Counted from the first letter of the stretch, positions 17,850 through 64,000 are shown. The stretch: DNA of 64,000 nt from a virus (IMGVR_UViG_3300035703_000034:1-64000), one strand, 5' to 3'. Made by a program: numbers and translations. The notes: generated from the sequence alone by a model not told the origin.

Positions 17850-18494
17850 ATGCAACCGCCCATCAGTCCGGACATGAGAGAGCGCGAGCTCGGCGATCGC
17901 ATCGGGTTCTGGGGCGCGACGGCCGGCACCGCCGCCGTCGCCGCCACCCAGCAGCCCAAGGTCCGACAGCTGCTCGGCCTGGCGGTGAAGGCCGCCGGGC
18001 TCGGCGAGGCCTTCGACCCGCTCGACGCGCAGCACCAGCAGTGGCTCGCGCAGCACGTCGCGCGGCAGAAGCAGGCCACCTTGCACGCCTGGCAGGGCCT
18101 GCCTGCCGATCGGCAAGCGCAGACGCGCGGGGCCGTCAAACAGGCGTTGAACGCGTTTGACGACGTGCTCGCCTACGGCCGCTACGCCGAGAAGGTCGCC
18201 CGGGTGGCGATGACGCCCCAGATGGTCGCCGACCTCGACCTCGAGGGCCACCTCGCGCTGGCCGACCTGCGCGACAAGACGACCTTCCGCGCCGCGCTGG
18301 GGCTCGGGGCCGGCAGCCTGGCTGGCGGCATGCTCGCGCGCAAGGGGCCGGTGCCGTCGTTCGCGATGCCGGCCGGCGCCCTGCTCGGCGGGCTCGCGGG
18401 CGGCATGTTGGGCGTCGCCTCCGTGCCGACGCACCGCGAGCTCTCGAACATCTACCTGCAGAGCATGGCGCGCCAGCGGCGCATGGCCCCATGA
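17850..18494 (+). CDS. Glycine-zipper membrane protein, KxA-motif family
   Basis: C-terminal GxxxG hairpin. Contains VKAA, QKQA and EKVA motifs. Confidence 0.6.
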   Translation: MQPPISPDMRERELGDRIGFWGATAGTAAVAATQQPKVRQLLGLAVKAAGLGEAFDPLDAQHQQWLAQHVARQKQATLHAWQGLPADRQAQTRGAVKQALNAFDDVLAYGRYAEKVARVAMTPQMVADLDLEGHLALADLRDKTTFRAALGLGAGSLAGGMLARKGPVPSFAMPAGALLGGLAGGMLGVASVPTHRELSNIYLQSMARQRRMAP

Positions 18495-37701: not shown

Positions 37702-37830
37702 ATGCAGAAAACCGGTGTGCTCCAGTGCCCCCAGTGCCACAGCCGGGAGGTCATCCTCACGGAAGAGGAACGTGGCGAACAGGTCGTGGTCTGCGCCGAC
37801 TGCGACCACGAGTGGGTGCTGCCCGTCTAG
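37702..37830 (+). CDS. Small Zn-ribbon protein
   Basis: 'CPQCHS...CADCDHEW', with an AAGGA RBS. Confidence 0.6.
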   Translation: MQKTGVLQCPQCHSREVILTEEERGEQVVVCADCDHEWVLPV

Positions 37831-39395
37831 TAGCGCATCCCGCCCGTCTGCGCGAGGTGCAGCAGCATGTTGGCGTAGACGCATGTGTGCATGAAGTCGT
37901 CGGGGCTGTCCTCGGGGTGGTCGTACTTGAACTTGTCGTTGTTGTTGCGGTCGTCCAGGCGCTCCTCGAAGATGCACAGGATGTCCGAGGCGTAGTGGCG
38001 GAACTGGTTCCACTCCGGGAACCAGAACTGCTTCCTGCGCATCTTCACGAACGTCTCCGTCATCGCCTGCGTGCGGTTCGTCTTGTAGATCTGGGCCTTG
38101 TCGTCCCAGCGCACCATCTCGTGCTGCTCGCTCACGTACATGAACCGCTGGACCGGCCGCCGCAGCTTCTGCTCGAGCAGCCGGCTCTGCGCCACGCCCG
38201 CGCCCCAGTCGGCCCCCACCATGTCGACGGTGAACATCGTGCAGTACGACGCGATCTCGTCGACCTGCTTGAGCACGTCCGGCTCCAGGAACCGCTTGGC
38301 GAAGATGAGCCGCAGCCGGTTATCGACCGTCAAGCCGAAGATCGAGAGCACGGTGTAGCTGCGGCGGGCCGTCAGCCCCCAGTCGATGCCCGCCATCAGG
38401 AAGTGGTACTGCATGTCGTCGGGGATGAGCTGCTCCATCAGCTGGTAGCCGGGGTCGCAGCAGGCCTTGAGGTCGTCCTCCGAGAGCAACGTGACGCCGG
38501 AGCCCGCCGACACGCCCATCACCTCGTTCAGGAACGTGTTCGGGTCGCTGCCGCCGTGGTACTTGCGCAGGATCTCCTGCCACTTGCCCGCGTCCTCCGT
38601 GTGCATCGGCAGCACGATTTGCGGGATGCGGAAGCCCGACCAGGCCTTGTCCGCGTGCCCGGCCGTCGCGTACCAGCGCCCCTGCCGGACGTCGCACACG
38701 GCCTTGCACGACTTGCACGTGAAGCCCCGATCGCCGATGTTGTCGGTGGACGGCAGGTTCCAGTGGCCGCTCGGGCACGGCACCACCCACTCGCACATCG
38801 TGCTCTTGCGCCAGGTCTCCTCCAGCGTGTTGCCGACCGTCTTGGCCGTGCCCGTGCGCATGACGAACTGCTTGGCGGAGGGCTGACCCGACATGACCTC
38901 CTCGATGATCGCCAGCTCATCGCCGACCATGTCCTGAATTTCGTCCTCGAAGACCCGGTTGGCGGACAGGCCGCGCAGGCTCTCCAGCTGCGAGGTCGCG
39001 CCGAAGTACATCACCGAGCCGTTGATAAACGATCGCTCACCGGTGTTGCGGCGGCAGTGGCTGTCGACGAACCAGCGCCGGATCTCCGGGCTGTCGTTGA
39101 TGAAGCTCGCCACACGCTGGTTGCTGAAGCGGCGCGACTGGATCAAAGACGGGTGGACCGTCAGGCTCTCCCAGTACGGCTCTCCGATGCCCTCGGAAAC
39201 CCCGAAAGCCGCAACAGCGGTCGATTTCGCGACTTGTCGGCCCGACAACACGACGATCTTGCGGCTGTCGATCTCGTAGATCGTCTGCCACGGTGGGTAG
39301 CTGTCGAGCGAGAAGGGTTTGCCCCGCAGCTGGAGCGTCCGCTCCGCGATGGTGCGTCGGTCCGTCTCGATGTGAATTTTCGATCCGGTTTCCAT
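37827..39395 (-). CDS. Terminase large subunit
   Basis: Walker A 'LSGRQVAKST', 'LRGLSA', Walker B 'VFEDEIQD', Zn-finger linker, nuclease 'AGIDWG' and 'PDDFMH'. Confidence 0.88.
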   Translation of the reverse strand: METGSKIHIETDRRTIAERTLQLRGKPFSLDSYPPWQTIYEIDSRKIVVLSGRQVAKSTAVAAFGVSEGIGEPYWESLTVHPSLIQSRRFSNQRVASFINDSPEIRRWFVDSHCRRNTGERSFINGSVMYFGATSQLESLRGLSANRVFEDEIQDMVGDELAIIEEVMSGQPSAKQFVMRTGTAKTVGNTLEETWRKSTMCEWVVPCPSGHWNLPSTDNIGDRGFTCKSCKAVCDVRQGRWYATAGHADKAWSGFRIPQIVLPMHTEDAGKWQEILRKYHGGSDPNTFLNEVMGVSAGSGVTLLSEDDLKACCDPGYQLMEQLIPDDMQYHFLMAGIDWGLTARRSYTVLSIFGLTVDNRLRLIFAKRFLEPDVLKQVDEIASYCTMFTVDMVGADWGAGVAQSRLLEQKLRRPVQRFMYVSEQHEMVRWDDKAQIYKTNRTQAMTETFVKMRRKQFWFPEWNQFRHYASDILCIFEERLDDRNNNDKFKYDHPEDSPDDFMHTCVYANMLLHLAQTGGMRY

Positions 39396-39906: not shown

Positions 39907-40683
39907 ATGGATCGCAAACCGCAGCTGATGGCCGAGGCCGCCCAGCTCGTCGAGCGGCACCGCGCCGACGGCGGCAACCTGAACGAGCTGATCGCCAAGC
40001 ACGCCAACGACCAGGGCTACAGCGAGCAGCTCTGCAGCAGCCTCGTGTGGTGCGTCAACCGCCAGAGCTTCAAGCAAGCCATGGCGCTCGACCAGCACGA
40101 CGAGCCGTCGATTGCCGACCCCGTCGCCGTCAAGCGCGCCCGCACGCGACCGGTCGCCGCCAGCGCCGAGCCTGTCAAGCAGGCGTCTACCGCCTGGTTG
40201 CCGACCGTCAAGCGCGCCAACAGCCGGATGCAGGGCGGCATGGTCCACACCCGCGCCGAGGGCCCCGATCACGGGCCGGCGCTGCGCGCGCACCTGGACC
40301 GTGAAAAGCGGGCGGCGGACACGGGGCTCAAGCTCGCGAGCGCCCGGACGCGCATCACGCTCGAGGACATGCACCACCAGACCCGGCTCATCAAGCAAAT
40401 TGGGCTCGACAAGCAGGCGAGCTTTCAGCAGCAGCTCGCCGCGTGCGAGCCGCCGGTGCGCGCGCTGCTCGGTGCGCTGCTGGAGAAGTCCGCGTACCAG
40501 CCGACGCTGCACACCCGCCAGGACCTCACTTTGCTGGTGCCGGCGGCGCTCAACGACTTCGACCGGTTGAAGCAGGCGGCAGACAGCATCGTGCGCGTCG
40601 GCGACGCGGCGGCCGCGCTCGAGGAGCTCAAGGTCACCCTGGCCCAGGATCGCGAGGCGGTCTCGGGCGTTGTGAGGTTCTAA
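39907..40683 (+). CDS. KxA-saturated helical protein (putative prohead core/scaffold)
   Basis: 10 of 13 lysines are in K-x-A. Lies at the start of the head cluster. Confidence 0.6.
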   Translation: MDRKPQLMAEAAQLVERHRADGGNLNELIAKHANDQGYSEQLCSSLVWCVNRQSFKQAMALDQHDEPSIADPVAVKRARTRPVAASAEPVKQASTAWLPTVKRANSRMQGGMVHTRAEGPDHGPALRAHLDREKRAADTGLKLASARTRITLEDMHHQTRLIKQIGLDKQASFQQQLAACEPPVRALLGALLEKSAYQPTLHTRQDLTLLVPAALNDFDRLKQAADSIVRVGDAAAALEELKVTLAQDREAVSGVVRF

Positions 40684-40685
40684 CC

Positions 40686-41111
40686 ATGCCTTTGCTGGAT
40701 TCGAACGCCAGACACTTCGTCCCGCAGACCGGCGTGAACCTGCTCAAGCCGATGCTGGCGGTCGGCGCGGCGGGCCTCGCAATCAGCGCCGGCGGCCAGC
40801 TCTGGAGCAACCTGCAGGTGCAGCGATCGTTCCAGACGATGCTGCAGCGCTACCCCGAGCTCCAGCGCGAGAACCCGACGCGGGTCAAGCAGCTCTTCGA
40901 GACCATCAGCAACGCGGCGCCCGACGTCGCGAAGGACCCGATGGTGGCGGGCTCGCTCATCAAGCGGATGCTGAACTACGACGGGATCGACCACGCGACC
41001 TACATGGAGCTGGTGTCGACTCAGGAGAAGATGACCAAGACGCGCCTGGCCCAGGTGACGCCGTTCACGTCGCTTGCTGGCCCGACCGTCGAGTTTGCAC
41101 GTCACTGGTAA
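40686..41111 (+). CDS. Hypothetical head-cluster protein with N-terminal hydrophobic helix
   Basis: ATG 40686 just after the upstream stop. 'APDVAKDPMVAGSLIKRM'. Confidence 0.6.
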   Translation: MPLLDSNARHFVPQTGVNLLKPMLAVGAAGLAISAGGQLWSNLQVQRSFQTMLQRYPELQRENPTRVKQLFETISNAAPDVAKDPMVAGSLIKRMLNYDGIDHATYMELVSTQEKMTKTRLAQVTPFTSLAGPTVEFARHW

Positions 41112-41142
41112 GGTTTCCGATCAGCGGCTTTTTCCAAAAGTG

Positions 41143-41151
41143 CTGATAATT
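41143..41151 (+). promoter_or_regulatory. Putative phage promoter motif CTGATAATT
   Basis: Preceded by GGCTTTTT. Upstream of an AGGAGG RBS. Confidence 0.65.
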
Positions 41152-41193
41152 CCACCGACTCATTGGACCCCCGATCAGGAGGAAGAAGACAAC

Positions 41194-42423
41194 ATGTCGA
41201 ACACTGCATGGGATATGTACCAGGCCATGATGAAGCAGTCCGCTGACGCCCTGGTGCCGGGCCAGGTGGGCATGGGGATGACCCCGGGGGTCACGGGCAT
41301 GCTGGACTCGGACCCGATGACGGCCAGCAACTCGGCCATCGCGGCCCAGCGCGCGGCGATGCAAGAAGCCGCCCTGCTCCACGCCAACGCCGACGCCGGC
41401 GCCGGCTACTCGACGCCCGCTCCTGGCACGAGCCCCTCGCTCCAGATGGCCGCGGACGTCAAGGCCGCATCCGTCGTCGACGAGGCCATCAAGTTCGCCG
41501 AGCACGTGTACCTGATGAACAAGCAGGCCGTAGCTTACGTGGAGGGGCCGACCGGCGCGGCCGCCGCGGACGTCGAGGCGGTTCTGCAAAACCGTGCGTT
41601 CTCGCGTCTCGGGGCGGATTACAAGTTTGAGCCCAAGGGCATGATGGCTCAGCTCAAGGCTGCTCCCGGCGCTTGGCTCGAAATGGCCAAGGGTAACCGC
41701 GGCCTGGGGCGGCAAGCGATGGCCATCGGCGGGCCGCTCGCGGCCGTGGGCGCACTCGGCTACGGTGGTTACCATATGATGCAGCCGCCGGCGCCCGAGA
41801 TGCTGCCTCCGGCGCCCGAGATGGAGCCGAAGGCCGCCTTCCAGCTGCCGTTCACCAACTACCACCTCGTGCACCGTCCCACGATGGGTCAGCGCGTGGA
41901 TCGCGCCGTCGAGTTCATGCGGGCCCAGGCGCAGAAGGTCAACAACCCGGCGGGCTACGTCGCGATGGGCGCCACCGGTCTCGCAGGCGCTGCGGGCGGA
42001 GCCTACATGATGGATCCTGAGATGGCGGCGATGAAGTCGGCCGCGGACACGGTGGTCTACGCCAACATGCTGAAGCGCGCGGCTGAGGAAGACGCCGCCG
42101 CGGCTGCGGCAGATGCCGCCAAGCCGGGCTTCATCGACAAGGCCAAGGGGTACTTGAACAGGGGCGTCAACGCGTACGACACGTTCTCGGCCGCGCACCC
42201 CCGCATGGTGCCTGCGGGCGCGCTCGCAGTCGGTGGTGCCGCCGGCTTCGGCGCGGCCCACTACATGGCCCACCAGGCGCAGCTCGCCCAGCAGGCGGCG
42301 GCGGCCGAGCAGGGCCTCGCGGCCCCGCAGAACGAGGCGATGGCCTACATGAAGGCCGCCGCGCTCAACGAGGCGGCCAACGCGGGTCAGCTGATGGCGC
42401 TCCGCCAGCTCGGCCTCGCCTGA
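41194..42423 (+). CDS. KxA-rich polyprotein-like protein with three Gly-rich hydrophobic segments
   Basis: 8 of 16 Lys are in K-x-A. Repeated 'G..A..GA.GYxM' hydrophobic segments. Confidence 0.65.
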   Translation: MSNTAWDMYQAMMKQSADALVPGQVGMGMTPGVTGMLDSDPMTASNSAIAAQRAAMQEAALLHANADAGAGYSTPAPGTSPSLQMAADVKAASVVDEAIKFAEHVYLMNKQAVAYVEGPTGAAAADVEAVLQNRAFSRLGADYKFEPKGMMAQLKAAPGAWLEMAKGNRGLGRQAMAIGGPLAAVGALGYGGYHMMQPPAPEMLPPAPEMEPKAAFQLPFTNYHLVHRPTMGQRVDRAVEFMRAQAQKVNNPAGYVAMGATGLAGAAGGAYMMDPEMAAMKSAADTVVYANMLKRAAEEDAAAAAADAAKPGFIDKAKGYLNRGVNAYDTFSAAHPRMVPAGALAVGGAAGFGAAHYMAHQAQLAQQAAAAEQGLAAPQNEAMAYMKAAALNEAANAGQLMALRQLGLA

Positions 42424-42438
42424 TACCGGTCTAAGTAA

Positions 42439-42480
42439 AAACGGCGCGAGGCGAGTAACGTCGGCTCGCGCCGTTTCTCT
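42439..42480 (+). terminator. Putative intrinsic terminator/hairpin
   Basis: AAACGGCGCGAG ... CTCGCGCCGTTT inverted repeat followed by CTCT. Confidence 0.55.
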
Positions 42481-42491
42481 AGGAGGCTGCC

Positions 42492-43937
42492 GTGCCCAAC
42501 GATTTTTCGTTCGCGCCCCACGAGAACGACCCCACCGACATCGCCAAAAACCCTTGGAAGCATCACGCCAGCGCCGCCGCCGCCGGCGGGGCGACCGGCG
42601 CTGCCATCGGTACGGCGCTCGGAGCCTGGGCAGGCGCCGGCAAAGGCTTCAAGTCCATGCTCGGGCATGCCGGCGCCGGTGCGCTCTTCGGGGGCGGCCT
42701 CGGCACGGGTCTGGGCTATCACAAGTCCGAAAAGAAGCAGCGAACCGTCGAGCAGGCCTACGGCGCCAACGATCCGTTTGCCATGGACAAGCTGAGTTAC
42801 GACCAGGCCCACGACGCCGGGCGGCAGTTTGCGTGGCGGATGCTGCGCGAGAAGCTGGCGCACCTGGGTCCGCTTGCGCCGCTGGGGCTGCTCGACGGCT
42901 CGCTGCAGGCTCCAGCGCTGCCCCAGGTCCCTAGAGGGAGCACGTTTAACCCCCGCGACTTCGACTTCGACGGCTTGCTGGTGCCCATGAAGCAGACCCC
43001 CGGAGGACGTGTCAGAAACGAGCTTCCGATCGCCTCTGACTGGGCGTCCGTGCAGCGCGGGGGGCGAGGCAAGCCGCGTGTGGTAACGGTGCACCCCAAG
43101 CTGCTGGTGAGTCCCGAGCGGGCTTTGGCGCTGAAACACCAGGTCACACGAAACTCGACGACCGGCGGAGACGCGCTGGCCATGGAGCACGCGGCCAACG
43201 TCGCCCTGGTGGAGGAGCACAACCGGAATGTCCTGAACGCGCACTTTGCCGGGCACCCGCACCGCGCGCACCTCGTGGACTACGTCCTGCAAAAGCACCG
43301 TGAAAATCACCAGGATTACTTTGACTTCGACAGGTTCGAAGGCAACGTGAGGCGCGTGGCCCCGGAGCCGCCGCGCTCGCAAACCGCCGCGCGTACGAGC
43401 GGCGCACCGTCTGGTACACCTGCGCAGGTTTCTCCCGCCGCCGCTGCGAGTGCGTCCACTACGTCCGCGGCGGGCGCTGCGACTTCGACCCCGCATGCAA
43501 GCTCCGGCGCGGCGTCGTCAGCTGCCAGCTCCGCAGCCGGCGCTCCCACTGCCCAGGCCACCGGCGCTCCCACGGCCCAGGCCACCGGCGCTCCCACGGC
43601 CCAGGCCACCGGCGCTCCCACTGCCCAGGCCACCGGCGCTCCCACGGCCCAGGCCACCGGCGCTCCCACTGCCCAGGCCACCGGCGCTCCCACGGCCCAG
43701 GCCACCGGTGCGGCGTCGACCACGCACGGCTCGAACCGTCAGCCACGCTCGGTCGCGCCTCCACAGCAGACCCTCTCAGAAGCAGCGACCGACTTGTGGA
43801 CGAACCACAAAGGCAAGCTCGGCCTCGGCGCCGCGGCGCTGGGCCTCTCGGGTCTCGGCTACTACGCGTACATGCAAAACGAGCGGCGCAACGCCGATCA
43901 GCTGTTCCAGCCGCGCGAAGACGTGATGGGCGCGTGA
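42492..43937 (+). CDS. Multi-module glycine-zipper protein with low-complexity linker
   Basis: N-terminal GxxxG hairpin, 'EKLA', GAPTAQAT repeats, C-terminal TM helix. AGGAGG RBS. Confidence 0.65.
   Translation: MPNDFSFAPHENDPTDIAKNPWKHHASAAAAGGATGAAIGTALGAWAGAGKGFKSMLGHAGAGALFGGGLGTGLGYHKSEKKQRTVEQAYGANDPFAMDKLSYDQAHDAGRQFAWRMLREKLAHLGPLAPLGLLDGSLQAPALPQVPRGSTFNPRDFDFDGLLVPMKQTPGGRVRNELPIASDWASVQRGGRGKPRVVTVHPKLLVSPERALALKHQVTRNSTTGGDALAMEHAANVALVEEHNRNVLNAHFAGHPHRAHLVDYVLQKHRENHQDYFDFDRFEGNVRRVAPEPPRSQTAARTSGAPSGTPAQVSPAAAASASTTSAAGAATSTPHASSGAASSAASSAAGAPTAQATGAPTAQATGAPTAQATGAPTAQATGAPTAQATGAPTAQATGAPTAQATGAASTTHGSNRQPRSVAPPQQTLSEAATDLWTNHKGKLGLGAAALGLSGLGYYAYMQNERRNADQLFQPREDVMGA
43539..43706 (+). 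repeat. Tandem repeat 7 x 24 bp encoding GAPTAQAT
   Basis: GGCGCTCCCAC(T/G)GCCCAGGCCACC x7. Confidence 0.95.
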
Positions 43938-45691
43938 CCGTGGTCGCACCCGACGAACGCATTAAGCAGCGGATTCTGGCTGACCCCTACGGCGAGGCGG
44001 ACGTCATCATCCACCGCTCGCGCGACATCGGCGCGACGGTCGGCAGCGTGGTTCCCATCGTGGGACCCTTGGTGGGCGCGAACGTCGGCCGCGTGCATGG
44101 CATGTACAAGGCGGTGCAGCTGCACGACCAAGCAGCAAAGGAGTATGCGGCGCGGGGCGGTCACCTGAACGTTCTGGCCCGGCACCCGTACGCCACTGGC
44201 CTGGTGTCGACCGCGGGTTTGTTTCCGGTCGGCGCAGGCACAGCGGGGCTCGCCATCGGGCATCAGCTGTCGCGCGCCGCCGTCCCGCAAGACCTCGCCG
44301 CAGCCCGCGCCACCACCGACGACGAGAAGCTGGACCACCCGTACGAGCTGCTGACGCGCAACACCGTCGGCGGCGAGCTCATCGGCGGCGCCCTGGTCGG
44401 AACGGCCGGAACGCTCGCGGGCCGTCACTACGGCCAGACGCACGCCGGTGCCATCAATGCGAGCCTGACGAAAACCGAGGAGCTCGGACGCAAGTTTCTG
44501 GCCGGCGACCTGGGCCTCCCAATCTCGCGCACCCCCCGGGGAATCAACATGCCGGGCAACTTCTGGAAGTACGGCCTCGGCGTGACAGGCGCGGTCACCG
44601 GGTTTGGCGTCGGCGCGGCGCTGGGGTCGGTGCCTGGCATCCTCGGCACCATCAAAGAGCACGGCGAGGCGGCCGCGCGCGCCGAGGCCAAGGGGCAGAA
44701 GCTCCCCTACCTGGTACGCTCGCCCTACCTGGCTTACCTCGGGGCCGGTGCGGTGACCACGCCCATCGGCCTGGGCGGCGCGAAGAACCTCGCCTTTGAA
44801 AACGTCATCCAGTACAAGCGCCAGCAAAAGACCCCGCCCGCCGACCTGTCGGCGGATCTGGGCGGGTTTGCGAGTCATCTGCACCGCACCTACCTCGGAC
44901 AGCCCGAGGCCGCGGTTGCGAAAAAGAAGCCCACCCGCACCAAACGTGCTGCAGCCCACAGTTCCCAAGGAGGAAGCCCGATGCCCAGTCCGCTGCCAAC
45001 CCCGACCGTCGCCGCACCGCCCGGTCCCGTTCCGGTGCAGCCGCAAGGAAGCGCGCTACCCCCCAAGATGCCGTTCATCGTCAGCCATCCGTACCTGGCG
45101 TCAGCCGGCTACAACGTGGCTGGTGGTGCGCTGGGCGCGGGCGTTGGGTCGCTGTCCGGTGGTGTGGCGGGCAAGCTCGTCCGGCCGGTGGCAAACGCCG
45201 TTGAGGCGGGCCTCAACGCCTACGTCAAGACACCCATGGAAGGCCGCTTCAGCGTGCCGCTGCATCTTGCTGCCGCAGCGGCGGCCCGCGGTGCCAACGT
45301 GCTCGGCCGAGCGGCTGAAACCGGCGGACGGCTGGCTGGTGGCGTGGCGGGTGCCGGGGCGGGCCTGCTGGCGGGCGACGTCGCCGCCGTCGCGCACCAC
45401 TTGCATGATCGTTTGGAGTACGCACGGACGTTGCGCAGCGCCGGTCACTCGGACCGGCTGCCGTTCGTGGTCGAGCATCCGTACCTGACACGCGCGCCGA
45501 TGTCCCTCCTCCCGGTCATCGGCCAGTACGGGATCGCGCCCGCTGTGCATTACAACGCGCGCAACGCCTTCGAAGACAGCTTCCGTGAAGCTGCCAAGCG
45601 TCCGGTCGCGCCGACGGAGAAGGCGGCCGCGATGCAGGACGCCTACGCCGCCGGCCGCACGTTTGCCTACCAGCTGGCGCAGCAAGTCTGA
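43934..45691 (+). CDS. Glycine-zipper membrane polyprotein with four HPY/SPY modules
   Basis: 'VLARHPYA', 'LPYLVRSPYL', 'MPFIVSHPYL', 'LPFVVEHPYL', with TKRAA and EKAA motifs. GTG start overlaps the upstream stop. Confidence 0.65.
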   Translation: MTVVAPDERIKQRILADPYGEADVIIHRSRDIGATVGSVVPIVGPLVGANVGRVHGMYKAVQLHDQAAKEYAARGGHLNVLARHPYATGLVSTAGLFPVGAGTAGLAIGHQLSRAAVPQDLAAARATTDDEKLDHPYELLTRNTVGGELIGGALVGTAGTLAGRHYGQTHAGAINASLTKTEELGRKFLAGDLGLPISRTPRGINMPGNFWKYGLGVTGAVTGFGVGAALGSVPGILGTIKEHGEAAARAEAKGQKLPYLVRSPYLAYLGAGAVTTPIGLGGAKNLAFENVIQYKRQQKTPPADLSADLGGFASHLHRTYLGQPEAAVAKKKPTRTKRAAAHSSQGGSPMPSPLPTPTVAAPPGPVPVQPQGSALPPKMPFIVSHPYLASAGYNVAGGALGAGVGSLSGGVAGKLVRPVANAVEAGLNAYVKTPMEGRFSVPLHLAAAAAARGANVLGRAAETGGRLAGGVAGAGAGLLAGDVAAVAHHLHDRLEYARTLRSAGHSDRLPFVVEHPYLTRAPMSLLPVIGQYGIAPAVHYNARNAFEDSFREAAKRPVAPTEKAAAMQDAYAAGRTFAYQLAQQV

Positions 45692-45710
45692 CGGGGTTTT
45701 TCGCGCGCGG

Positions 45711-45719
45711 CTGATAGTT
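45711..45719 (+). promoter_or_regulatory. Putative promoter motif variant CTGATAGTT
   Basis: Preceded by GGTTTTT. Upstream of the protease gene. Confidence 0.5.
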
Positions 45720-45751
45720 CATGTGGAGCCTGAACCGGCCACGGAGCCAGC

Positions 45752-47137
45752 ATGACCGATCAGCCGTTTGAGAAACGCATCGACCTTGCCCACGACTACC
45801 TCAACGAGGGGGAGTCGCGCGTGGTGCCGCTCGCCGTCTCGTACGGCCAGCTGACCGTCGACGATCGCGCGAGCCGCGGCCACGTGAAGACCGCCGCGGC
45901 CGAAGAGGCCCTGGCTGCCTGCGCCAACGTCAAGCCGCAGGCCGACCGGGTCTACGCGCTCGTCATCGGGCTGGGTTCTTCCGAGTTCTGGGGCGTCAAC
46001 AACAACGGCGACAGCTTCCCGGAGAACGCCCTGCTGGGCCTGCCGCCGGTCGACTCGCCGATGGCGTTCTTCGACAAGTACAAGGCGCGCATCCGGCCGG
46101 GCTGGGGCTACAAGACCTTCCTCAAGGGCCACGTCTTCGAGGAGCACCGCAACTCCAACCCGCGCTTCGCCATCGGCGGCATCCAGGACACCTTTTGGAA
46201 CAACCGCATGCACCGCGTCGAGAACCTCATCTGGATCGACCGGAAGAAAGGCAAGAAGTGGGCCGAGCGCCTCGACGCCGGCAAGACGATCGGCACGAGC
46301 ATGGCCTGCAAGGTGCCCTTCGACCGCTGCAGCCTGTGCAGCAACCTCGCGCCCACCCGCGCGCAGTACTGCCCGCACCTCAAGCCCGGCACCAGCGCCT
46401 ACCAGCTGCGGCAAATTCGCGACGACGGCCTCGCCGTCAGCATGATCAACGACTTCCCGCACTTCTTCGACGAGAGCTGCGTGGAGAACCCGGCCGCCCC
46501 CGAGGCGCTTTCCATCATGAAGGTCGCTAGCGACGCGGCCAAGGTCGCGGCCCGGAAGCAGGCCGAGCTGAAGAAGACCGGGCCGGACCTCCCGCTCGAC
46601 GTGATGCTCGACGACGTCAAGCAGCTCTACCAGTCCGAGCCGCACCTGCCCGCCTCCGTGATCGACAAGCTGCGGCAGTTCCCGCTGACGGACGTCACGG
46701 CCGGGCTCAAGAAGCTCGGCATGGCGCTGCGGCCCTCCGAGATGTTCGCGCTGTGCTACGGGGCGGACGCGCTGCCGACCAAAGTGGCGCGCGACCTCGA
46801 CGACCAGGTCTGGGTGGCGCCCGTGCGCGACGGCTACGACCCGCGCCTCGCCGAGGCGGCCCAAGTGAAGATCGCGAGCCTGCCGGACCCCCGCGCCACC
46901 CAGCGCGTGGTCGACCTGCTCACGCCCTTCGCCACGAAGCGCAGCTACCTCGAGCCCTACCTGACGCCCCGGCTGATGCAGACCCCCGTCAAGGCGGCCC
47001 ATGCGATCGTGGCGCGGCCCGACCTGCAGCCCTACCTCGATGCCTACCACGGCCTGTACAAGCGTGCGAGCGGCGAGTTCGGCTACGGCGCGACCCAGCT
47101 GTACGCGACCTACCAGGGCCTGCACGGAGCGTGGTGA
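45752..47137 (+). CDS. Prohead maturation protease (HK97/assemblin fold) with Zn-finger insert and C-terminal extension
   Basis: 'NNNGDSF', catalytic His in 'FEEH', Ser in 'GTSMAC', 'FFDESCVENPA' (F.E.S.V..PA-like). Lies upstream of the capsid gene. Confidence 0.75.
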   Translation: MTDQPFEKRIDLAHDYLNEGESRVVPLAVSYGQLTVDDRASRGHVKTAAAEEALAACANVKPQADRVYALVIGLGSSEFWGVNNNGDSFPENALLGLPPVDSPMAFFDKYKARIRPGWGYKTFLKGHVFEEHRNSNPRFAIGGIQDTFWNNRMHRVENLIWIDRKKGKKWAERLDAGKTIGTSMACKVPFDRCSLCSNLAPTRAQYCPHLKPGTSAYQLRQIRDDGLAVSMINDFPHFFDESCVENPAAPEALSIMKVASDAAKVAARKQAELKKTGPDLPLDVMLDDVKQLYQSEPHLPASVIDKLRQFPLTDVTAGLKKLGMALRPSEMFALCYGADALPTKVARDLDDQVWVAPVRDGYDPRLAEAAQVKIASLPDPRATQRVVDLLTPFATKRSYLEPYLTPRLMQTPVKAAHAIVARPDLQPYLDAYHGLYKRASGEFGYGATQLYATYQGLHGAW

Positions 47138-47454
47138 TGCGCCCTTACGAAGCGTACTGGCTGCACAAACAGGCGAGCGACGGCGTCGACTGGCACGCCC
47201 TGCGGCAGAAGACCCACGACCACCTGCACGCCGCCCAAGCGTACTGGCAAGCCAACAAGCCCGCGATGCTGCGCTCGACGGCGAACAACCTGATGTACGG
47301 GCTGCTCACCAGCCGGGCGACAGGGCCGGTCTCGCTGGTCGGCTCGAGCACGGGCGGCGTCATCGACGGCATGCTGTTCCGGCCCGCGACGGACGCCACG
47401 ATCAACCTGGTGGGGACGGGCTTACGAAAGTTTTACGGTTTGGGTGAAAAATAG
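47137..47454 (+). CDS. Small KxA-family protein
   Basis: 'HKQAS'. Coupled to the protease stop (TGATG). Confidence 0.55.
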   Translation: MRPYEAYWLHKQASDGVDWHALRQKTHDHLHAAQAYWQANKPAMLRSTANNLMYGLLTSRATGPVSLVGSSTGGVIDGMLFRPATDATINLVGTGLRKFYGLGEK

Positions 47455-47462
47455 GCCAACGA

Positions 47463-47470
47463 CGATAATT
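47463..47470 (+). promoter_or_regulatory. Putative promoter motif variant CGATAATT
   Basis: Upstream of an AAGGAGG RBS and the 47497 start. Confidence 0.5.
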
Positions 47471-47496
47471 CATTTGGCAAAAGGAGGATTCGCGGC

Positions 47497-48039
47497 ATGT
47501 CGAGCACCTACATCCAGAGCCTGATCGACGAGATCACGGCGAGCCAGGCTACGAAGCTGGCGTCCGATCACGAGAAGGACGAGAAGCACGAGAAGTCCGA
47601 CAAGAAGGACGACAAGTCCGACAAGAAGGATCGCGGCCGCGAGTTCTTCGAGAAGATGCGCGGCAAGAAGGACGACGAGAAGAAGGCGGCGGTCAAGACC
47701 GCGGCCGAGCGCGCGGCGTTCGACCTGTTCGCCGAGGTCGCGGACCTCCCGGACGATCTGCGCAAGCTGGCGGCCATGGAGGCGGAGGCGGAGTTCTTCG
47801 CCGACCTGCAACGGCAGCAGGCCTTCGGCTTCGGCGGCGCCGCCAAGCAGGCGAGCGACGACGAGTACGCGGCGCTGTTCAACGAGGTCTTCGAGGCCCA
47901 CACGGCCAAGCTGGCGTCGTTCGACCCGGACTACGCCGTGATGCTCGCCGAGGAGCAGCAGAAGATGGCGTTCAACCAGGGCTTTGAAGACGCCATGGCC
48001 GAGCTGCAGGCGCAGATCAACCCCCTGTCGCAGTTCTGA
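47497..48039 (+). CDS. Scaffold-like acidic helical protein, KxA repeats
   Basis: KLAS, KTAA, KLAA, KQAS, KLAS, KMAF. Shares a repeat with the next two genes. Confidence 0.65.
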   Translation: MSSTYIQSLIDEITASQATKLASDHEKDEKHEKSDKKDDKSDKKDRGREFFEKMRGKKDDEKKAAVKTAAERAAFDLFAEVADLPDDLRKLAAMEAEAEFFADLQRQQAFGFGGAAKQASDDEYAALFNEVFEAHTAKLASFDPDYAVMLAEEQQKMAFNQGFEDAMAELQAQINPLSQF

Positions 48040-48049
48040 GGAGACCTCC

Positions 48050-48286
48050 GTGAAGACGATCGATCAGGCCGTGGCGGAGAACGCCTACTGGGATCAGCTG
48101 GTGCAGAAGCAGGCAGCTGATACTTTCTACAGCGATCTTTTCGACGCGGCGTTCGAGCGCCAGACCGAAAAGCTCGCGGCGCTGGACCCCGACTATGCCG
48201 CGATGCTGTTCCAGGAGCAGCAGAAGCAGGCATTCAACCAGGCTTATGCCGAGACCCTGGCCCAGGCTCAGGCAACAGCTTGGTAG
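48050..48286 (+). CDS. Small scaffold-like paralogue
   Basis: GAGGAG RBS and GTG start. 'LFDAAFERQTEKLAALDPDYAAML'. Confidence 0.65.
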   Translation: MKTIDQAVAENAYWDQLVQKQAADTFYSDLFDAAFERQTEKLAALDPDYAAMLFQEQQKQAFNQAYAETLAQAQATAW

Positions 48287-48299
48287 AAGGTGACTTGAG

Positions 48300-48533
48300 A
48301 TGTCCGTCTACCACCAGATGATGATGCAGCTCCACGAGCAGGAGCTTGCCAAGCAGGCCGCCATGGCGGAGGCCGTCGACACCGAGGCGCTGTTCGACGC
48401 GGCGTTCGAGGCCCACACGGCCAAGCTGGCTGCGCTCGACCCCGCCTACGCGGCGATGCTGCACGCCGAGCAGGAGAAGACCGCGGCGTTCGAGGCCGCG
48501 TACTACACCACGCTGCAGGCGCTGGGAGGCTAG
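48300..48533 (+). CDS. Small scaffold-like paralogue
   Basis: 'LFDAAFEAHTAKLAALDPAYAAML'. All 3 Lys are in K-x-A. Confidence 0.65.
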   Translation: MSVYHQMMMQLHEQELAKQAAMAEAVDTEALFDAAFEAHTAKLAALDPAYAAMLHAEQEKTAAFEAAYYTTLQALGG

Positions 48534-48536
48534 ACC

Positions 48537-48746
48537 ATGAGCTGGGAGCACGAGCGCCACGCGCGGATCCAGGAAGCCACGGCCATGCTCAAGGCGGCCC
48601 GCGACGTGCTCGAGCACGCGCTGCCGCTCGTCGAGACCGGCGGCATGGACCCCGCGCAGGCGATCCTGGCAAAGAAGGCCAGCATCTACAAGAACCTGAA
48701 GTACGCCGACCTCGCGCAGGCGTACCGGTCCGCACAGGGACACTGA
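48537..48746 (+). CDS. Small KxA-family protein
   Basis: GGAGG RBS. LKAA, KKAS and LKYA motifs. Confidence 0.55.
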   Translation: MSWEHERHARIQEATAMLKAARDVLEHALPLVETGGMDPAQAILAKKASIYKNLKYADLAQAYRSAQGH

Positions 48747-48747
48747 C

Positions 48748-49689
48748 GTGTCAGGGCCCGTCTCGGCCGATCTCCACCGGTTCATCGTCAACCCGGAGAA
48801 CAGCAGCCTCGTGCTGTCGGCCGCGCGGCACCTGCTCTACCGCCCGGCAGACTTCCTGTACACGAAGCTGCGCGGACTGCCCGCAAACCCCCGGGGCAAC
48901 CTCTGGCACGGCCTGAACCCCGAAACCTGGGGCGCGGGCCTGGCGCGCGCAGGGGAGCGCGCCGACGCGTCGCTCGGACGCATGACGGGCGGCACGCGCA
49001 AGGAGATGGTCACGCTCAACCGCGACCACCTGCAGCGCATCGGCGACACGCTCGCCGACTGGGAGCGCCGCCCCGACATGAAGGCGCACGCCGGCCGCGT
49101 GCGCAAGCAGTTCGATGATCTGCTGCACCAGCACCACGCGCCCGGGACCACCTTGGACCAGGTGCTTCAAAACAGTCGCAGTGCTGATAATTACAAGGTA
49201 ACGCTGCACGACGTGCTTTTGCCGTCCGCCACGGGCGAGGTCGGCAAGACCGTCAAGACGATCGCGGCCGACGGTGCGGCGCTGTACGGGTCGGCCGAGA
49301 TCGTGAACCAAGTCAACCGGGTTGCCAACCAAAAGACCCCATCGGAGGACCGTATGTCAGACATGGCCGCCGTCAAAGCCGCCCTCGAGCAACTCGAAAA
49401 GGCCGCGCGGATCCTGGAAGAGATCCCTGCCCGCGACCGCGCGTACAAGCAGGCTTCGAGCCTGTACCAGCACGGCGCGATCATGGAGCACGAGGTCGAG
49501 AAGTACGCCGCGCTGTTCTTCGAGAACCCGGACAGCGCCGACGTCGTGGCCCAGGGCTTGCTGCGCAACAGCGCGAGCGAGGTCAAGTCCGCGCGCCTGG
49601 GTGAGGTGGTTTCGGGCAGCTCCGCGTCGACGGGGGGCTCTCGTTATTCGAGTTTCGATGCCATGTGCCTCGAAGGGCTTACCAAATAG
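48748..49689 (+). CDS. Head-cluster protein with probable nested C-terminal product from 49354
   Basis: Continuous ORF with an internal promoter motif (49184) and an internal GGAGG + ATG (49354). Confidence 0.6.
   Translation: MSGPVSADLHRFIVNPENSSLVLSAARHLLYRPADFLYTKLRGLPANPRGNLWHGLNPETWGAGLARAGERADASLGRMTGGTRKEMVTLNRDHLQRIGDTLADWERRPDMKAHAGRVRKQFDDLLHQHHAPGTTLDQVLQNSRSADNYKVTLHDVLLPSATGEVGKTVKTIAADGAALYGSAEIVNQVNRVANQKTPSEDRMSDMAAVKAALEQLEKAARILEEIPARDRAYKQASSLYQHGAIMEHEVEKYAALFFENPDSADVVAQGLLRNSASEVKSARLGEVVSGSSASTGGSRYSSFDAMCLEGLTK
49184..49192 (+). promoter_or_regulatory. Intragenic copy of promoter motif CTGATAATT
   Basis: Exact motif in a local AT-rich patch inside the ORF. Confidence 0.45.
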
Positions 49690-49708
49690 GGGCCTTTTTT
49701 CAAAACGG

Positions 49709-49717
49709 CTGATAATC
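49709..49717 (+). promoter_or_regulatory. Putative phage promoter motif CTGATAATC (capsid operon)
   Basis: Preceded by GGCCTTTTTT. Upstream of a TAAGGAG RBS. Confidence 0.65.
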
Positions 49718-49745
49718 CCGTTAACGGCGTAAGGAGATCAAAGCT

Positions 49746-50276
49746 ATGACCATCAGTTTCGGTAAGCCCGGACAACTGCGAAAGACGTTCAAGGACGCCA
49801 AGCTGGAGATCCAGGGCGGCGTGTACTTCCGTCACGCGTGTCCGCTGGTGGACGCCTTCAACAAGGCGAACCTCAAGGACGGGCTCTTCCTGGCGGCTGC
49901 CGCGGGCGGCAAGTTCGACGTGGCCGCGGACGCGAACCGCGCGCTGTACCTGATCTTCACCTCGAACTCCGAGGTGATCATCTCGCAGCCGACGTCGGCG
50001 GACGACTTCCCCGGCGACGACCGCACGGACGCTCCCACGGGCCTGTTCGGCTCCGTGCAGGCCGTGTGGCCGATCGAGCTGCTGCACACGGGTGCGCGTG
50101 GCACGGCGACGGTGGCGCTCAACAGCTACGCCGTCGGCACGGCCCTGACCGTCGTGAACGGCAGGCTGTGTCCCGCCAACGTCGGAGGCATCACGGGGGA
50201 CCGGATCGTCGGTTACGTCGAGGCGGAGCCCTCGGTGACCGGCACCAACTCCGTGCAGTGCCGCGTGTCCCTCTAA
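49746..50276 (+). CDS. Putative head decoration/cement protein
   Basis: Small beta-rich protein directly upstream of the capsid gene. 'YAVGTALTVVNGRL...IVGYV'. Confidence 0.55.
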   Translation: MTISFGKPGQLRKTFKDAKLEIQGGVYFRHACPLVDAFNKANLKDGLFLAAAAGGKFDVAADANRALYLIFTSNSEVIISQPTSADDFPGDDRTDAPTGLFGSVQAVWPIELLHTGARGTATVALNSYAVGTALTVVNGRLCPANVGGITGDRIVGYVEAEPSVTGTNSVQCRVSL

Positions 50277-50297
50277 CCGTTCCGGAGGCTTAGGATC

Positions 50298-51242
50298 ATG
50301 GATCAGGATATGCACACTCTGCAAGAAGTTCGGATGAGGAACCAGGGGCTGGTTCAGATGCTCCGCTCCGGACCCGAGGGTCACGAGAAGGTGGCCTCGG
50401 CCATCAAGGAGGAGCTGATCCTCAACTACGCACGCGAGGACGGCCTGTCGCGCCGCGCGATGCCGATGCGCCCCGTGTCGAACGCCGAGCTCACGCCCGA
50501 CGCCAACAACCCCGACGTGCCCGCCATGCTGGTCCCGGTGGAGCCGGTGCTCAACGAGTACCTCGCCACCTCCGTCGACTTCATGCAGCCGTCCAAGGAG
50601 CTCTGGTTCCGCTCCAAGGTGGCCTTCGTCTACTTCAAGCCGATCAAGACGAAGACCATCACGTTGACGGAAATGCAACTTCTTGCAAATAACTTTCCCA
50701 TCAGATCTTACATCGAGTCTGTCGCGCGCAACGACATTCTCGCGGTTGAAGACATCGCCCTGATCGAAGCCATCGAGCGCTGCGTGGCGAAGTTTTCTGC
50801 GACCAACGCCTTGACTTCGACCGCACCTTTGGTGAAAGATGTCATCGCGGACGGCGCGAAGGCGATGACCCGCAACCGACTCAATGTCGAACTCATTCTT
50901 CTGAATGAAATTACATATTACGACATCTTGAAGTGGAACTCTTCGGAAGTCGGCTCTCTTGTGCTGGACGACATCGTCGAGCACGGGCCGAAGGGCGAGG
51001 AGTTCAAGTACAAGAGCTGGCTGGGCTTCAAGTGGGTGTTGACAAACAACACCGACGTGATCCCCGAGAACATCCTGTACTACCTGCCCCCGCAGCGCTT
51101 CCTGGGCGTGTCGTACATGCTGGCCGAGGCCGAGCAGTTCCTCGAGTTCCGGGACGGCATCCTGCGCACGAACACCCGCGAGATCATCGGCCGCAACCTG
51201 ATGAACCCCCGCGGTCCCATCAAGCACACGCTGTCGGCCTAG
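50298..51242 (+). CDS. Major capsid protein (HK97-like fold, inferred)
   Basis: 314 aa, between protease/scaffold/decoration and neck genes. 'YAREDGLSRRAMP', 'DILAVED', C-terminal 'NPRG'. Confidence 0.7.
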   Translation: MDQDMHTLQEVRMRNQGLVQMLRSGPEGHEKVASAIKEELILNYAREDGLSRRAMPMRPVSNAELTPDANNPDVPAMLVPVEPVLNEYLATSVDFMQPSKELWFRSKVAFVYFKPIKTKTITLTEMQLLANNFPIRSYIESVARNDILAVEDIALIEAIERCVAKFSATNALTSTAPLVKDVIADGAKAMTRNRLNVELILLNEITYYDILKWNSSEVGSLVLDDIVEHGPKGEEFKYKSWLGFKWVLTNNTDVIPENILYYLPPQRFLGVSYMLAEAEQFLEFRDGILRTNTREIIGRNLMNPRGPIKHTLSA

Positions 51243-63320: not shown

Positions 63321-64000
63321 CTACATCGGGCTGCCGCCCTGGCGGCGCGGCGGCTTCTGCTCGGGCATGTTCTTGCTGACCTCGCCGCCCGCGGGCTGCT
63401 GCACGCCGGCCTGCGGAGCGAGGCCCATCTGCGTCAGCATGCGATCCATGATCGAGGCCATCAGCGGGTTCGTCTGCTCGAGCTGCGCGAAGATCTGGGC
63501 CTGCTGCTCGGGCGGCATCGTCGCCATCTGCTGGGCCTGCTGGGCGATCATCTGCGGGTCCGTCGCCTGGCGGCGCATCAGCTGCCGGGCGAGGTCGGGG
63601 TTCTGCTGCGCGATGCGCTCGATCGCCATCTGGGCCTGCTCTGGCTTGAGCGGGCGCAGCGCCTCGAAGACGCTCTCGACCTGCTCGTGCGGGATGGTGG
63701 GGAAGCCGAAGTTGCCCTCGGGCGGCAGGGCGTTGACCAGCAAGCTCTGGATCGTCTGGCCCCGGGTGGCCGCCTCCGCCTGCGCCTTCGCGTCGGCGAT
63801 CGCCTTCTCCAAGTTCTCGGCGATGCGGTAGCGGCTCTCCTCGGCGTAGTCGAAGTCGTTGAGCACGCCCAGCGTCTTGCCGGAAAGCACGCCCGACTGC
63901 CAGTAGTTGAAGCTCAGCTGCTTGGCCTGGATGTCGTCCGCCATCTTGAACTTCTTCATGTCGATCTTCACATGCTCGATGCCCGTGATCTGGCTGATGC
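63321..64000 (-). CDS. Probable portal protein C-terminus (5' part outside window)
   Basis: Frame is open to the window end. 'LSGKTL...DFDYAEE..RI' followed by a Gln/Pro-rich tail, as in large-phage portals. Confidence 0.5.
   Translation of the reverse strand, partial: ISQITGIEHVKIDMKKFKMADDIQAKQLSFNYWQSGVLSGKTLGVLNDFDYAEESRYRIAENLEKAIADAKAQAEAATRGQTIQSLLVNALPPEGNFGFPTIPHEQVESVFEALRPLKPEQAQMAIERIAQQNPDLARQLMRRQATDPQMIAQQAQQMATMPPEQQAQIFAQLEQTNPLMASIMDRMLTQMGLAPQAGVQQPAGGEVSKNMPEQKPPRRQGGSPM

Follow-up and report, generated by a model that had tools for sequence, protein, structure and literature searches.

Copies of the motif K-x-A are present far above chance in the head-building proteins of this phage and of hundreds of its relatives. 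The enrichment is real, position-specific, confined to head-assembly proteins, under selection, and clade-wide. We consider it quite probable that K-x-A|(S/A/G), where the bar marks the predicted scissile bond, is the recognition and cleavage motif of the phage's own head-maturation serine protease. By analogy with related enzymes, Lys would be P3, a free residue P2, and Ala P1, followed by a small P1' residue (Ser > Ala > Gly), with the cut after Ala. The characterized specificities of the gp21/assemblin fold all have the form P3-x-P1 with P2 free: (L/I)-x-E in T4, (S/A/G)-x-E in phiKZ and SPN3US, and (V/L/I)-x-A|S in herpesviruses. A first-pass annotation had proposed that a protease of this fold reads the K-x-A code. 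The proposal withstood all computational tests applied to it (enrichment, conservation, site placement, fold, and a T4 control); that the motif is cut, at this bond and by this enzyme, we infer.

The phage is uncultured, with a 106-kb genome of 69% GC, from which 14 head-cluster and 104 other proteins were scored. The features concerned are listed below, with positions in the window (the whole 64,000-nucleotide stretch of DNA under study) unless genome positions are indicated.

17850..18494, + strand: 214-aa protein outside the head cluster, 4 K-x-A in 7 Lys; possible distal substrate (P 0.02)
39907..40683, + strand: 258-aa protein, 10 K-x-A in 13 Lys; predicted scaffold or core protein digested to peptides
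41194..42423, + strand: 409-aa Ala/Met-rich protein, 8 K-x-A in 16 Lys; moderate candidate substrate (P 0.02)
45752..47137, + strand: head maturation protease, 461 aa, 9 K-x-A sites (phrog_18299, E 2.4e-7); predicted disordered propeptide (aa 1-48), catalytic domain (~49-259), disordered linker (264-280), and helical C-terminal domain (281-461)
45887..45895, + strand: protease site K46-T-A48|A49, end of the disordered N-terminal segment
46520..46528, + strand: protease site K257-V-A259|S260, C-terminal end of the catalytic domain
47060..47068, + strand: protease site K437-R-A439|S440, 22 residues before the C-terminus
47497..48039, + strand: 180-aa charged helical protein, scaffold-like, 8 K-x-A sites (P 0.006)
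48050..48286, + strand: 78-aa paralogue, 3 K-x-A in 4 Lys
48300..48533, + strand: 77-aa paralogue, 3 K-x-A in 3 Lys
48537..48746, + strand: 69-aa protein, 3 K-x-A in 5 Lys
48748..49689, + strand: 313-aa protein, 5 K-x-A sites
50298..51242, + strand: major capsid protein, 314 aa (phrog_2522 major head protein, E 1.2e-7)
50388-50396, + strand: the one conserved capsid site, K31-V-A33|S34
63321..64000, - strand, continuing to genome base 65318 beyond the window: portal gene (BLASTP to phage G gp14, annotated portal, E 2e-13)
Genome 66069-67112, - strand: 347-aa protein, 12 K-x-A in 16 Lys, two genes upstream of the portal gene in the same operon

Among the head-cluster proteins, Ala occupies the K+2 position in 33% of cases versus 10-18% at the other offsets from -6 to +6, and their offset profile has no Ala peak centered on Arg. 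The K+2 peak is absent from the other 104 proteins (11%), which bears out the claim that K-x-A is over-used in the head cluster. The Lys counts given in the first-pass annotation for 39907-40683, 41194-42423, 48050-48286, 48300-48533, and 49354-49689 (5 of 6 in the last) are exact. The 49354-49689 segment makes up the C-terminal third of a single 313-aa gene, 48748-49689. A blind scan, in which all 400 gapped residue pairs (a-x-b) were ranked by excess, placed K-x-A as the top outlier in the target (57 observed vs. 27.2 expected, P 4e-7). It also ranked first in two related loci (L001 and L002), in Salmonella phage Arash, and in Vibrio phage D69, and more broadly in 70 of 80 related viral loci with GC contents of 32-67% (4,093 observed vs. 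2,078 expected). As a positive control, the same scan of the T4 head module ranked I-x-E first and L-x-E fourth, the experimentally known motif of T4 gp21.

The excess survives control for Ala content. When residues were shuffled within each protein, keeping its composition, P values of about 5e-6 were obtained for 39907-40683 and genome 66069-67112(-), and of 0.003-0.006 for the protease (45752..47137), 47497-48039, and genome 83897-84337. Five smaller proteins gave values of 0.02-0.05, several of which, taken singly, fail correction for 118 tests; the three paralogues at 47497-48039, 48050-48286, and 48300-48533 are non-independent observations. The head-cluster genes at 40686-41111, 42492-43937, 43934-45691, and 49746-50276 showed no enrichment, and the cluster's large Gly-rich proteins are not marked either. 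There is no excess of N-terminal leaders that end in K-x-A-[AS] (5 observed vs. 3.1 expected). Convincing marking is limited to about 12 proteins, almost all of them encoded in the capsid or the portal operon, so that the terms "genome-wide" and "large set of internal head proteins" used in the initial proposal were overstated.

The sites are retained well beyond what overall similarity predicts. In comparisons with two relatives, K-x-A sites of the marked proteins are kept in 96 of 124 cases, with ~32 expected from identity squared, versus 28 of 101 for all other proteins, with ~27 expected (Fisher 5e-14). The RNA polymerase subunit keeps only one or two of its 11 sites despite 62-65% identity. 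Ala is invariant in 76% of K-x-A sites versus 29% for other Ala residues, and the middle residue in only 14%. The strictest position is Ala at +2 (85% retained); Ser or Gly replaces it at some sites, and it is not Glu. Lys is seldom exchanged even for Arg (3-4% within K-x-A vs. 9-14% for other Lys); the putative P3 is not hydrophobic. With Ala assigned tentatively to P1, small residues occupy P1' at 25 of the 43 conserved sites (S 13, A 9, G 3; P 2e-5), and neither Pro nor an acidic residue occurs at P2.

The most heavily marked candidate substrate is the 258-aa protein. Relatives of 40-42% identity keep six to eight of its sites, and at none of these is the middle residue invariant. These sites are more evenly spaced than by chance: the predicted fragments measure 8-34 aa, and a maximum this small was found in 0 of 20,000 random placements. 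The protein matched no Pfam or PHROG family and its Atlas model is of low confidence. The 347-aa protein comes second, with 9 of its 12 sites invariant in orthologues of 39-46% identity. According to the translations, the C-terminal domain of the 180-aa protein is paralogous to the products of the next two genes. Five of its eight sites are kept in each relative, as are 3/3 in both relatives for the 78-aa paralogue, 2/3 and 3/3 for the 77-aa paralogue, and 3/3 for the 69-aa protein in the single relative having the gene. The 313-aa protein, a single ORF in relatives, keeps 4/5 and 5/5; all five sites lie within aa 210-282 and none among the eight Lys of the N-terminal 200 aa. About 25% of the 409-aa protein aligns to relatives, with four of five covered sites kept. 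Outside the cluster, the 214-aa protein, for which no family was found, keeps 2/4 and 3/4 at only 30% identity.

The capsid protein is homologous to Arash capsid protein gp226 and to phage G gp27. Its K31, A33, and S34 are invariant and the preceding residues 1-30 diverged. Arash and D69 have K-E-A|G at residues 27-30 of their capsid proteins; no K-x-A is present in that of Bacillus phage G.

The only curated sequence-level match of the protease is PHROG 18299, "head maturation protease." No Pfam family, Peptidase_S77, S21, S78, and S80 included, was matched at E <= 0.01, so that family membership was not found at the sequence level, and its family profile retrieved no relative among PDB sequences. 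The AF2 model (pLDDT 80.9 overall, below 50 for residues 1-47 and 264-280) was matched by VIA-align to T4 gp21 (MEROPS S77; PDB 5jbl) with Z 10.0 and rmsd 2.9 A over 127 aligned residues, followed by the herpesvirus proteases of VZV (1vzv, Z 9.0), PrV (4v07, Z 8.6), and HSV, HCMV, EBV, and KSHV (Z 5-7). The top 27 VIA-align matches are exclusively gp21 or herpesvirus proteases, and they cover residues ~60-260. Foldseek also gave 5jbl as best match, with a probability of 0.96 but an E value of 0.06. The model thus indicates a gp21/assemblin fold (MEROPS clan SH: S21, S77, S78, S80), a relation visible at the fold level only. H132 and S183 are invariant in sets of 27 and 38 homologues and, together with H209, would give the order His...Ser...His. 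H209, present in 32 of 38, is an uncertain candidate for the third catalytic residue. hhalign aligns the protease only weakly to gp21 (E 0.044, probability 1.2%): S183 falls on S140, and H132 lies three residues off the H85 register.

Invariant K-x-A sites adjoin disordered segments at both ends of the catalytic domain, in agreement with the earlier claim that sites fall at domain boundaries; the strings K46-T-A|A, MKVA|SDAAKVA|ARKQA, and capsid K31-V-A|S on which it relied are all present. K46 and A48 are found in 27/27 and 37/38 homologues, some with as little as 27% identity; P1' is without exception a small residue (G/A/S), and the pLDDT boundary at residue 47/48 coincides with the site. 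At the other end, K257 is conserved in 38/38 homologues, A259 in 37/38, and S260 in 29/38. Two further copies, K264-V-A and K269-Q-A, come next within the disordered linker, and K269 is present in 38/38. Near the C-terminus, K437 is Lys in 32/38 homologues, 37/38 have A, S, or G as the predicted P1, and the surrounding motif is conserved. The conserved K169-W-A|E sits in the model inside a helix of the catalytic domain; a conserved site is therefore not necessarily a cleavage site.

What the statistics demonstrate by themselves is that a short linear motif of head-assembly proteins is under selection; they do not demonstrate proteolysis. K-x-A might accordingly be a conserved binding or targeting motif that stays uncut, for instance one docking scaffold, core, or protease tail on the inner capsid or on each other, and the helical site inside the folded protease domain would suit such a role. 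We regard this as unlikely, since the invariant sites at the two ends of the catalytic domain, the single site after the diverged capsid N-terminus, the even spacing in the 258-aa protein, and the small P1' residues are all typical of cleavage sites. K-x-A also shares its P3-x-P1 form with the motif of every characterized protease of this fold, and the T4 cleavage motif yields the same statistical signature.

Slightly less probable still is proteolysis of another bond or by another enzyme, that is, a cut after Lys, or the action of a host or second phage protease. The scissile bond is placed by analogy, and for HK97-type proteases, which have the same fold, the cut follows Lys, as at Lys103 of the HK97 capsid protein. 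However, the strictness of Ala at +2 and the small residue next to it fit a P1/P1' pair, whereas a cut after Lys would leave a strict Ala at P2' without explanation. As to the enzyme, the motif and this protease family occur together in 70-77 of the 80 loci, the motif flanks the enzyme's own domain, and Pfam and PHROG family searches found no second protease in the head module. Finally, a by-product of composition has next to no likelihood: although the marked proteins have a high Ala content (13-27%) and are mostly helical and the genome is GC-rich, this reading is refuted by the composition-preserving shuffles, by an offset profile peaking at +2 only, after Lys and not Arg, by Ala-rich proteins from elsewhere in the genome, which show no signal, and by relatives of 32-42% GC, in which the signal is just as strong.

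Cleavage of K-x-A by the phage protease would have close parallels in T4. As in T4, the protease gene belongs to the head module, adjoins scaffold-like genes, and lies upstream of the major capsid gene (terminase large subunit at 37827, protease at 45752, scaffold-like genes at 47497-48746, capsid at 50298). One short P3-x-P1 motif is common to many head proteins, as in T4 gp22, gp67, gp68, gp23, gp24, and internal proteins, and it is dense in the proteins predicted here to be degraded and single near the capsid N-terminus. Unlike in T4, P1 would be Ala and not Glu, and P3 Lys and not Leu/Ile; the portal gene and the gene of one major candidate substrate are 12-20 kb from the capsid cluster; and the protease has over twice the length of gp21, with a helical C-terminal domain of ~200 residues and no detectable sequence-family membership.

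With herpesvirus assemblin/pUL26 (MEROPS S21), the protease shares the fold, probably the His...Ser...His order, and, on the proposed assignment, P1 Ala and P1' Ser. The layout also recalls the established one of the pUL26 gene: a catalytic domain ending in K-V-A|S, a scaffold-like domain, and then K-x-A|S 22 residues from the C-terminus. It differs from assemblin by Lys instead of a hydrophobic P3, by the lack of detectable sequence similarity, and by many putative substrates with many sites each, where assemblin has a single scaffold precursor with two or three. Head maturation in which one phage protease processes multiple substrates at a short shared motif is likewise found with phiKZ gp175 and SPN3US gp245 (MEROPS S80), whose phages also encode multisubunit RNA polymerases. 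Their motif is (S/A/G)-x-E, with several copies in propeptides (PMC10052503, PMC7411985, PMC5694885). Both this motif, with P1 Glu, and the substrates differ from those proposed here, and cleavage in those phages was mapped by mass spectrometry, while here it is predicted.

Cultured phages with the same protease family, at 29-37% identity, are Salmonella phage Arash (OQ632216), Vibrio phages D69, D181, and D148, and Bacillus phage G (gp19). Even phage G retains the sites on either side of the protease domain, with EKVAS as the equivalent of K257-V-A|S; module-wide enrichment is weak in this phage (27 observed vs. 15.9 expected). The Arash virion proteome, the only one from a relative, was published without peptide-level data; the paper labels the protease merely "structural protein" and does not mention a protease or processing (PMC10585845).

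We propose that the protease would be made as a zymogen and taken into the prohead, where it would free its catalytic domain by cuts at K46-T-A|A and K257-V-A|S and then cut up its own helical C-terminal domain. The capsid protein would lose ~33 N-terminal residues at K31-V-A|S. Scaffold or core proteins with dense sites would be digested to peptides of ~10-50 residues able to exit the shell before DNA packaging; they comprise the 258-aa protein, the portal-adjacent 347-aa protein, the 180-aa protein together with its two small paralogues, and, in its C-terminal third, the 313-aa protein. We found no publication describing a K-x-A code, and such a cutting rule would be undescribed for phages. 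The "new system" initially suggested is better seen more narrowly: if the proposal is true, what is new is the specificity, while the system belongs to the T4/phiKZ type, already known, in which many head proteins are processed.

In the head proteins of this phage, Lys is over-used two residues before Ala (Lys-any-Ala, K-x-A), an observation that proved real and robust in residue shuffles, in a T4 control, across 80 loci, and in a test of conservation. The counts of K-x-A among Lys residues and the strings quoted by the first-pass annotation were all exact on re-check. The viral contig is 106,380 bp long with ~69% GC, and the window is its first 64 kb. Gene calling by third-position GC gave 118 genes covering 91% of the sequence, with the following landmarks:

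37827-39395, minus strand: terminase large subunit (phrog_675, E 2e-51)
45752-47137: head maturation protease (phrog_18299)
50298-51242: major capsid protein (phrog_2522)
54750-56675, minus strand: tail sheath
63321-65318, minus strand: portal (match to phage G gp14, E 2e-13)

The phage is myovirus-type and belongs to a poorly studied group, whose only cultured relatives, all distant, are Salmonella phage Arash, Vibrio phages D69, D181, and D148, and Bacillus phage G. The terminase gene is divergent from the head operon. The portal gene lies outside the capsid cluster, 12 kb downstream on the opposite strand, where it shares an operon with a K-x-A-dense gene for a 347-aa protein (genome region 64001-67112).

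The excess of K-x-A persists against a composition-matched null, in within-protein residue shuffles controlling for Ala and Lys content. The shuffle P was ~5e-6 for a 258-aa protein (39907-40683) and for the 347-aa protein (genome 66069-67112, minus strand), 0.003-0.006 for the protease and the products of 47497-48039 and 83897-84337, and 0.02-0.05 for five smaller proteins. Among 14 head-cluster proteins, Ala stands at K+2 in 33% of cases versus 10-18% at each other offset from -6 to +6, and Arg has no Ala peak at +2. The proposed distinction between the head cluster and the rest of the genome holds as well, the other 104 proteins showing no K+2 peak (11%). In a blind scan of all 400 residue pairs at three spacings, with no hypothesis set beforehand, K-x-A was the strongest outlier (57 observed vs 27.2 expected, P 4e-7); K-x-x-S was likewise raised, consistent with K-x-A-S. 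T4 I/L-x-E is the experimentally established motif of the T4 prohead protease gp21. The identical scan of the T4 head module (gp20, 67, 68, 21, 22, 23, 24, and inh) ranked I-x-E first (35 vs 16.3 expected), L-x-E fourth, and K-x-A tenth. As this positive control returns the established motif, the statistic recovers the cleavage motif of a head protease where the answer is known. The K-x-A signal in our phage is stronger than the I-x-E signal in T4.

The same pair stands out throughout the clade. K-x-A leads all pairs in the two closest related contigs (56% GC with a protease 65% identical, and 65% GC with a protease 59% identical), and does so again in the Arash and D69 head modules. A profile search identified at least 339 viral contigs encoding this protease family. 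Among 80 loci taken from them, with GC contents of 32-67%, K-x-A ranked first of the 400 pairs in 70 and among the top three in 77, totaling 4,093 occurrences for 2,078 expected. Phage G shows a weak signal across the module (27 vs 15.9 expected), and its protease, gp19, still keeps both flanking K-x-A sites.

Site conservation, which had been proposed as a check, points the same way. Every protein of the phage was compared by alignment with the complete contigs of the phage's two nearest relatives, the square of each protein's identity serving as expected retention. Proteins marked by enrichment retain both K and A in 96 of 124 comparisons (~32 expected), whereas all other proteins retain K-x-A in 28 of 101, which is the neutral expectation (~27; Fisher P 5e-14 between the two sets). 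An RNA polymerase subunit (21505-25767) is 62-65% identical, yet only one or two of its 11 sites are kept; the 258-aa protein, 40-42% identical, keeps seven or eight of ten. Three-way alignments show an unchanging Ala in K-x-A at 76% of sites versus 29% for other Ala (P 9e-5); the middle residue is invariant in only 14%. Replacement of Lys by Arg occurs in 3-4% of comparisons for Lys in K-x-A and in 9-14% for other Lys. The residue that follows is small at 25 of the 43 conserved sites (13 S, 9 A, 3 G; P 2e-5), neither Pro nor an acidic residue occupies the middle position at any of the 43, and a hydrophobic preference at P4/P5 is mild (29/43 vs 21.5 expected).

Convincingly marked proteins are the following:

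39907-40683: 258-aa protein
41194-42423: 409-aa protein
45752-47137: protease
47497-48039: 180-aa protein, with three small neighbors, two of them its paralogues
48748-49689: 313-aa protein, C-terminal third
50298-51242: major capsid protein, N-terminus
genome 66069-67112, minus strand: 347-aa protein, distant from the capsid cluster; it shares the portal operon, where it lies two genes upstream of the portal

Possibly marked are a 214-aa protein at 17850 and the portal, with three conserved sites. The code had been described as genome-wide; this was overstated, the convincingly marked proteins being those listed above. The large Gly-rich cluster proteins at 42492 and 43934 are not marked. The former (42492-43937, 481 aa) carries, between Gly/Ala-rich segments, about seven tandem 8-residue units TGAPTAQA (Pfam PT repeat, E 9e-7), and, although in the head cluster, has K-x-A at just one of 16 Lys.

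In the capsid protein, the first 30 residues are poorly conserved, the invariant K31-x-A33-S34 follows immediately, and a stretch of high conservation comes next; the Arash and D69 capsid proteins have K-E-A-G at the equivalent place. The ten sites of the 258-aa protein predict eleven fragments of 8-34 residues; none of 20,000 random placements gave so small a largest fragment (random mean 70). All five sites of the 313-aa protein fall within residues 210-282. Neither the 258-aa nor the 347-aa protein could be identified through Pfam, PHROG, or the ESM Atlas. Three tandem paralogues occupy 47497-48533: the last ~60 residues of the 180-aa protein, whose extra N-terminal part is highly charged and rich in Lys, Asp, and Glu, recur as the entire 78-aa (48050-48286) and 77-aa (48300-48533) proteins, and two K-x-A sites lie at matching positions in all three. 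Outside the window, 83897-84337 encodes an Ala-rich protein of 146 aa that contains a run of Asp and has K-x-A at 7 of 11 Lys (P 0.005, a value that could arise once by chance among 118 proteins). Neither of the two closest relatives has an orthologue, and the protein may be a substrate particular to this lineage or may stand out by chance.

The idea that N-terminal leaders with K-x-A-[AS] at their end mark the sigma factor, helicase, or other cargo is not supported: the motif is not over-represented in the first 60 residues (5 vs 3.1 expected), and just one of the two relatives keeps the sigma-factor site, as is also the case for the helicase site. The helicase (28377-30056) and an RNA polymerase subunit (30297-32144), whose K-x-A sites are not conserved, are homologous to Arash gp217 (E 1e-48) and gp216 (E 5e-65). 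As both Arash proteins are reported to be abundant in virions (PMC10585845), this hints that a transcription apparatus is packaged in virions of the clade.

By sequence, the protease is not recognizable as S77 or S21, having no Pfam match, and a PDB search with its family profile returned no relative, only chance matches to picornavirus VP1. An AlphaFold2 model built on 27 homologues (mean pLDDT 80.9) predicts a compact domain at ~49-259 and a helical C-terminal domain at 281-461, with pLDDT below 50 solely at residues 1-47 and 264-280. Structure comparison placed T4 gp21 (PDB 5jbl) first (Z 10.0, rmsd 2.9 Å, 127 residues), followed by the varicella-zoster virus (9.0) and pseudorabies virus (8.6) proteases, then those of HSV, HCMV, EBV, and KSHV; the top 27 rows are all of this one fold. 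All 38 unique homologues (median identity 31%) share H132 and S183, the latter in GTSMAC, and 32 of them have H209. Hhalign puts S183 on gp21 S140 in a match too weak to be evidence of homology alone (E 0.044, probability 1.2%).

The protease carries sites of its own. The disordered N-terminal segment terminates in K46-x-A48, which 37 of 38 homologues have, always with a small residue next, and K257-(V/L/I)-A259 stands at the end of the catalytic domain's final strand (K in 38/38, A in 37/38, Ser next in 29). K269, in the disordered linker, is present in all 38, and K437-x-(A/S/G) lies 22 residues before the C-terminus. A conserved K169-W-A-E inside a helix of the catalytic domain is reminiscent of the internal site at which cytomegalovirus assemblin is cleaved. 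Complex prediction for protease residues 49-262 with capsid residues 1-70 spoke neither for nor against an interaction (score 0.28, mark 0.32).

To our knowledge, all characterized specificities of the gp21/assemblin fold have the form P3-x-P1 with P2 free: L/I-x-E in T4, S/A/G-x-E in phiKZ and SPN3US, and V/L/I-x-A before S in herpesviruses. This form would make Lys P3 and Ala P1, with the cut after Ala. K-x-A is quite probably the cleavage motif of the head protease. The protease would be a zymogen trimming itself, the capsid protein would receive a single N-terminal cut, and scaffold or core proteins studded with sites would be digested to small peptides; the combined pattern, read by analogy, is what T4 gp21 and its substrates show. 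The processing code proposed earlier is well supported computationally; that K-x-A is cut, at which bond, and by the product of 45752-47137 is our inference. The code represents a known kind of system with a new specificity, and not the new kind first suggested.

Multi-substrate head maturation has been described for T4 and SPN3US/phiKZ (PMC9026906, PMC9958956, PMC10052503, PMC7411985, PMC5694885). Searches of the openly accessible literature found no report of a Lys-x-Ala phage protease rule. The Arash paper mentions neither protease nor cleavage, calls gp222, its homologue of the protease, a "structural protein", and lists RNA polymerase subunits, sigma factor, and helicase among abundant virion proteins (PMC10585845). 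With Lys at P3, tryptic proteomics would miss K-x-A ends, which may be why that study reported no processing. Its Table 2 "coverage" cannot be sequence coverage (95.8% from six unique peptides of a 307-aa protein, and many entries of 100%; PMC10585845), and we left this column out. Contamination is likely, since 116 of 252 proteins were called structural after a single sucrose gradient (PMC10585845).

Capsid maturation proteases of this fold are common to tailed phages and herpesviruses. The characterized phage enzymes with multi-substrate motifs all, as far as we know, cut after Glu, whereas the cut in this clade seems to fall between Ala and Ser, as with herpesvirus assemblin. The gene layout also resembles that of the herpesvirus protease pUL26: the catalytic domain ends in K-V-A before S and is followed by a ~200-residue helical domain, with a further conserved K-x-A before S 22 residues from the C-terminus. 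It is conceivable, though we think it rather unlikely, that the clade keeps the whole pUL26 plan in one gene, and that Ala-Ser specificity and the protease-scaffold fusion are ancestral, have persisted in a phage lineage, and are not herpesvirus inventions. One x-A-S site would then release the protease domain from the fused scaffold-like domain, cleavage at a second, ~22 residues before the C-terminus, would free a tail that binds the capsid, and the P3 Lys would be the clade's own addition, letting one enzyme clear a dozen proteins.

If confirmed, K-x-A density alone would pick out scaffold, core, and processed head proteins in genomes where >80% of genes are "hypothetical", and the sites would predict mature N-termini. 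The clade is large and mostly uncultured, with at least 339 viral contigs besides the cultured Salmonella, Vibrio, and Bacillus phages; confirmation would narrow the gap between phages and herpesviruses and add a new specificity class.
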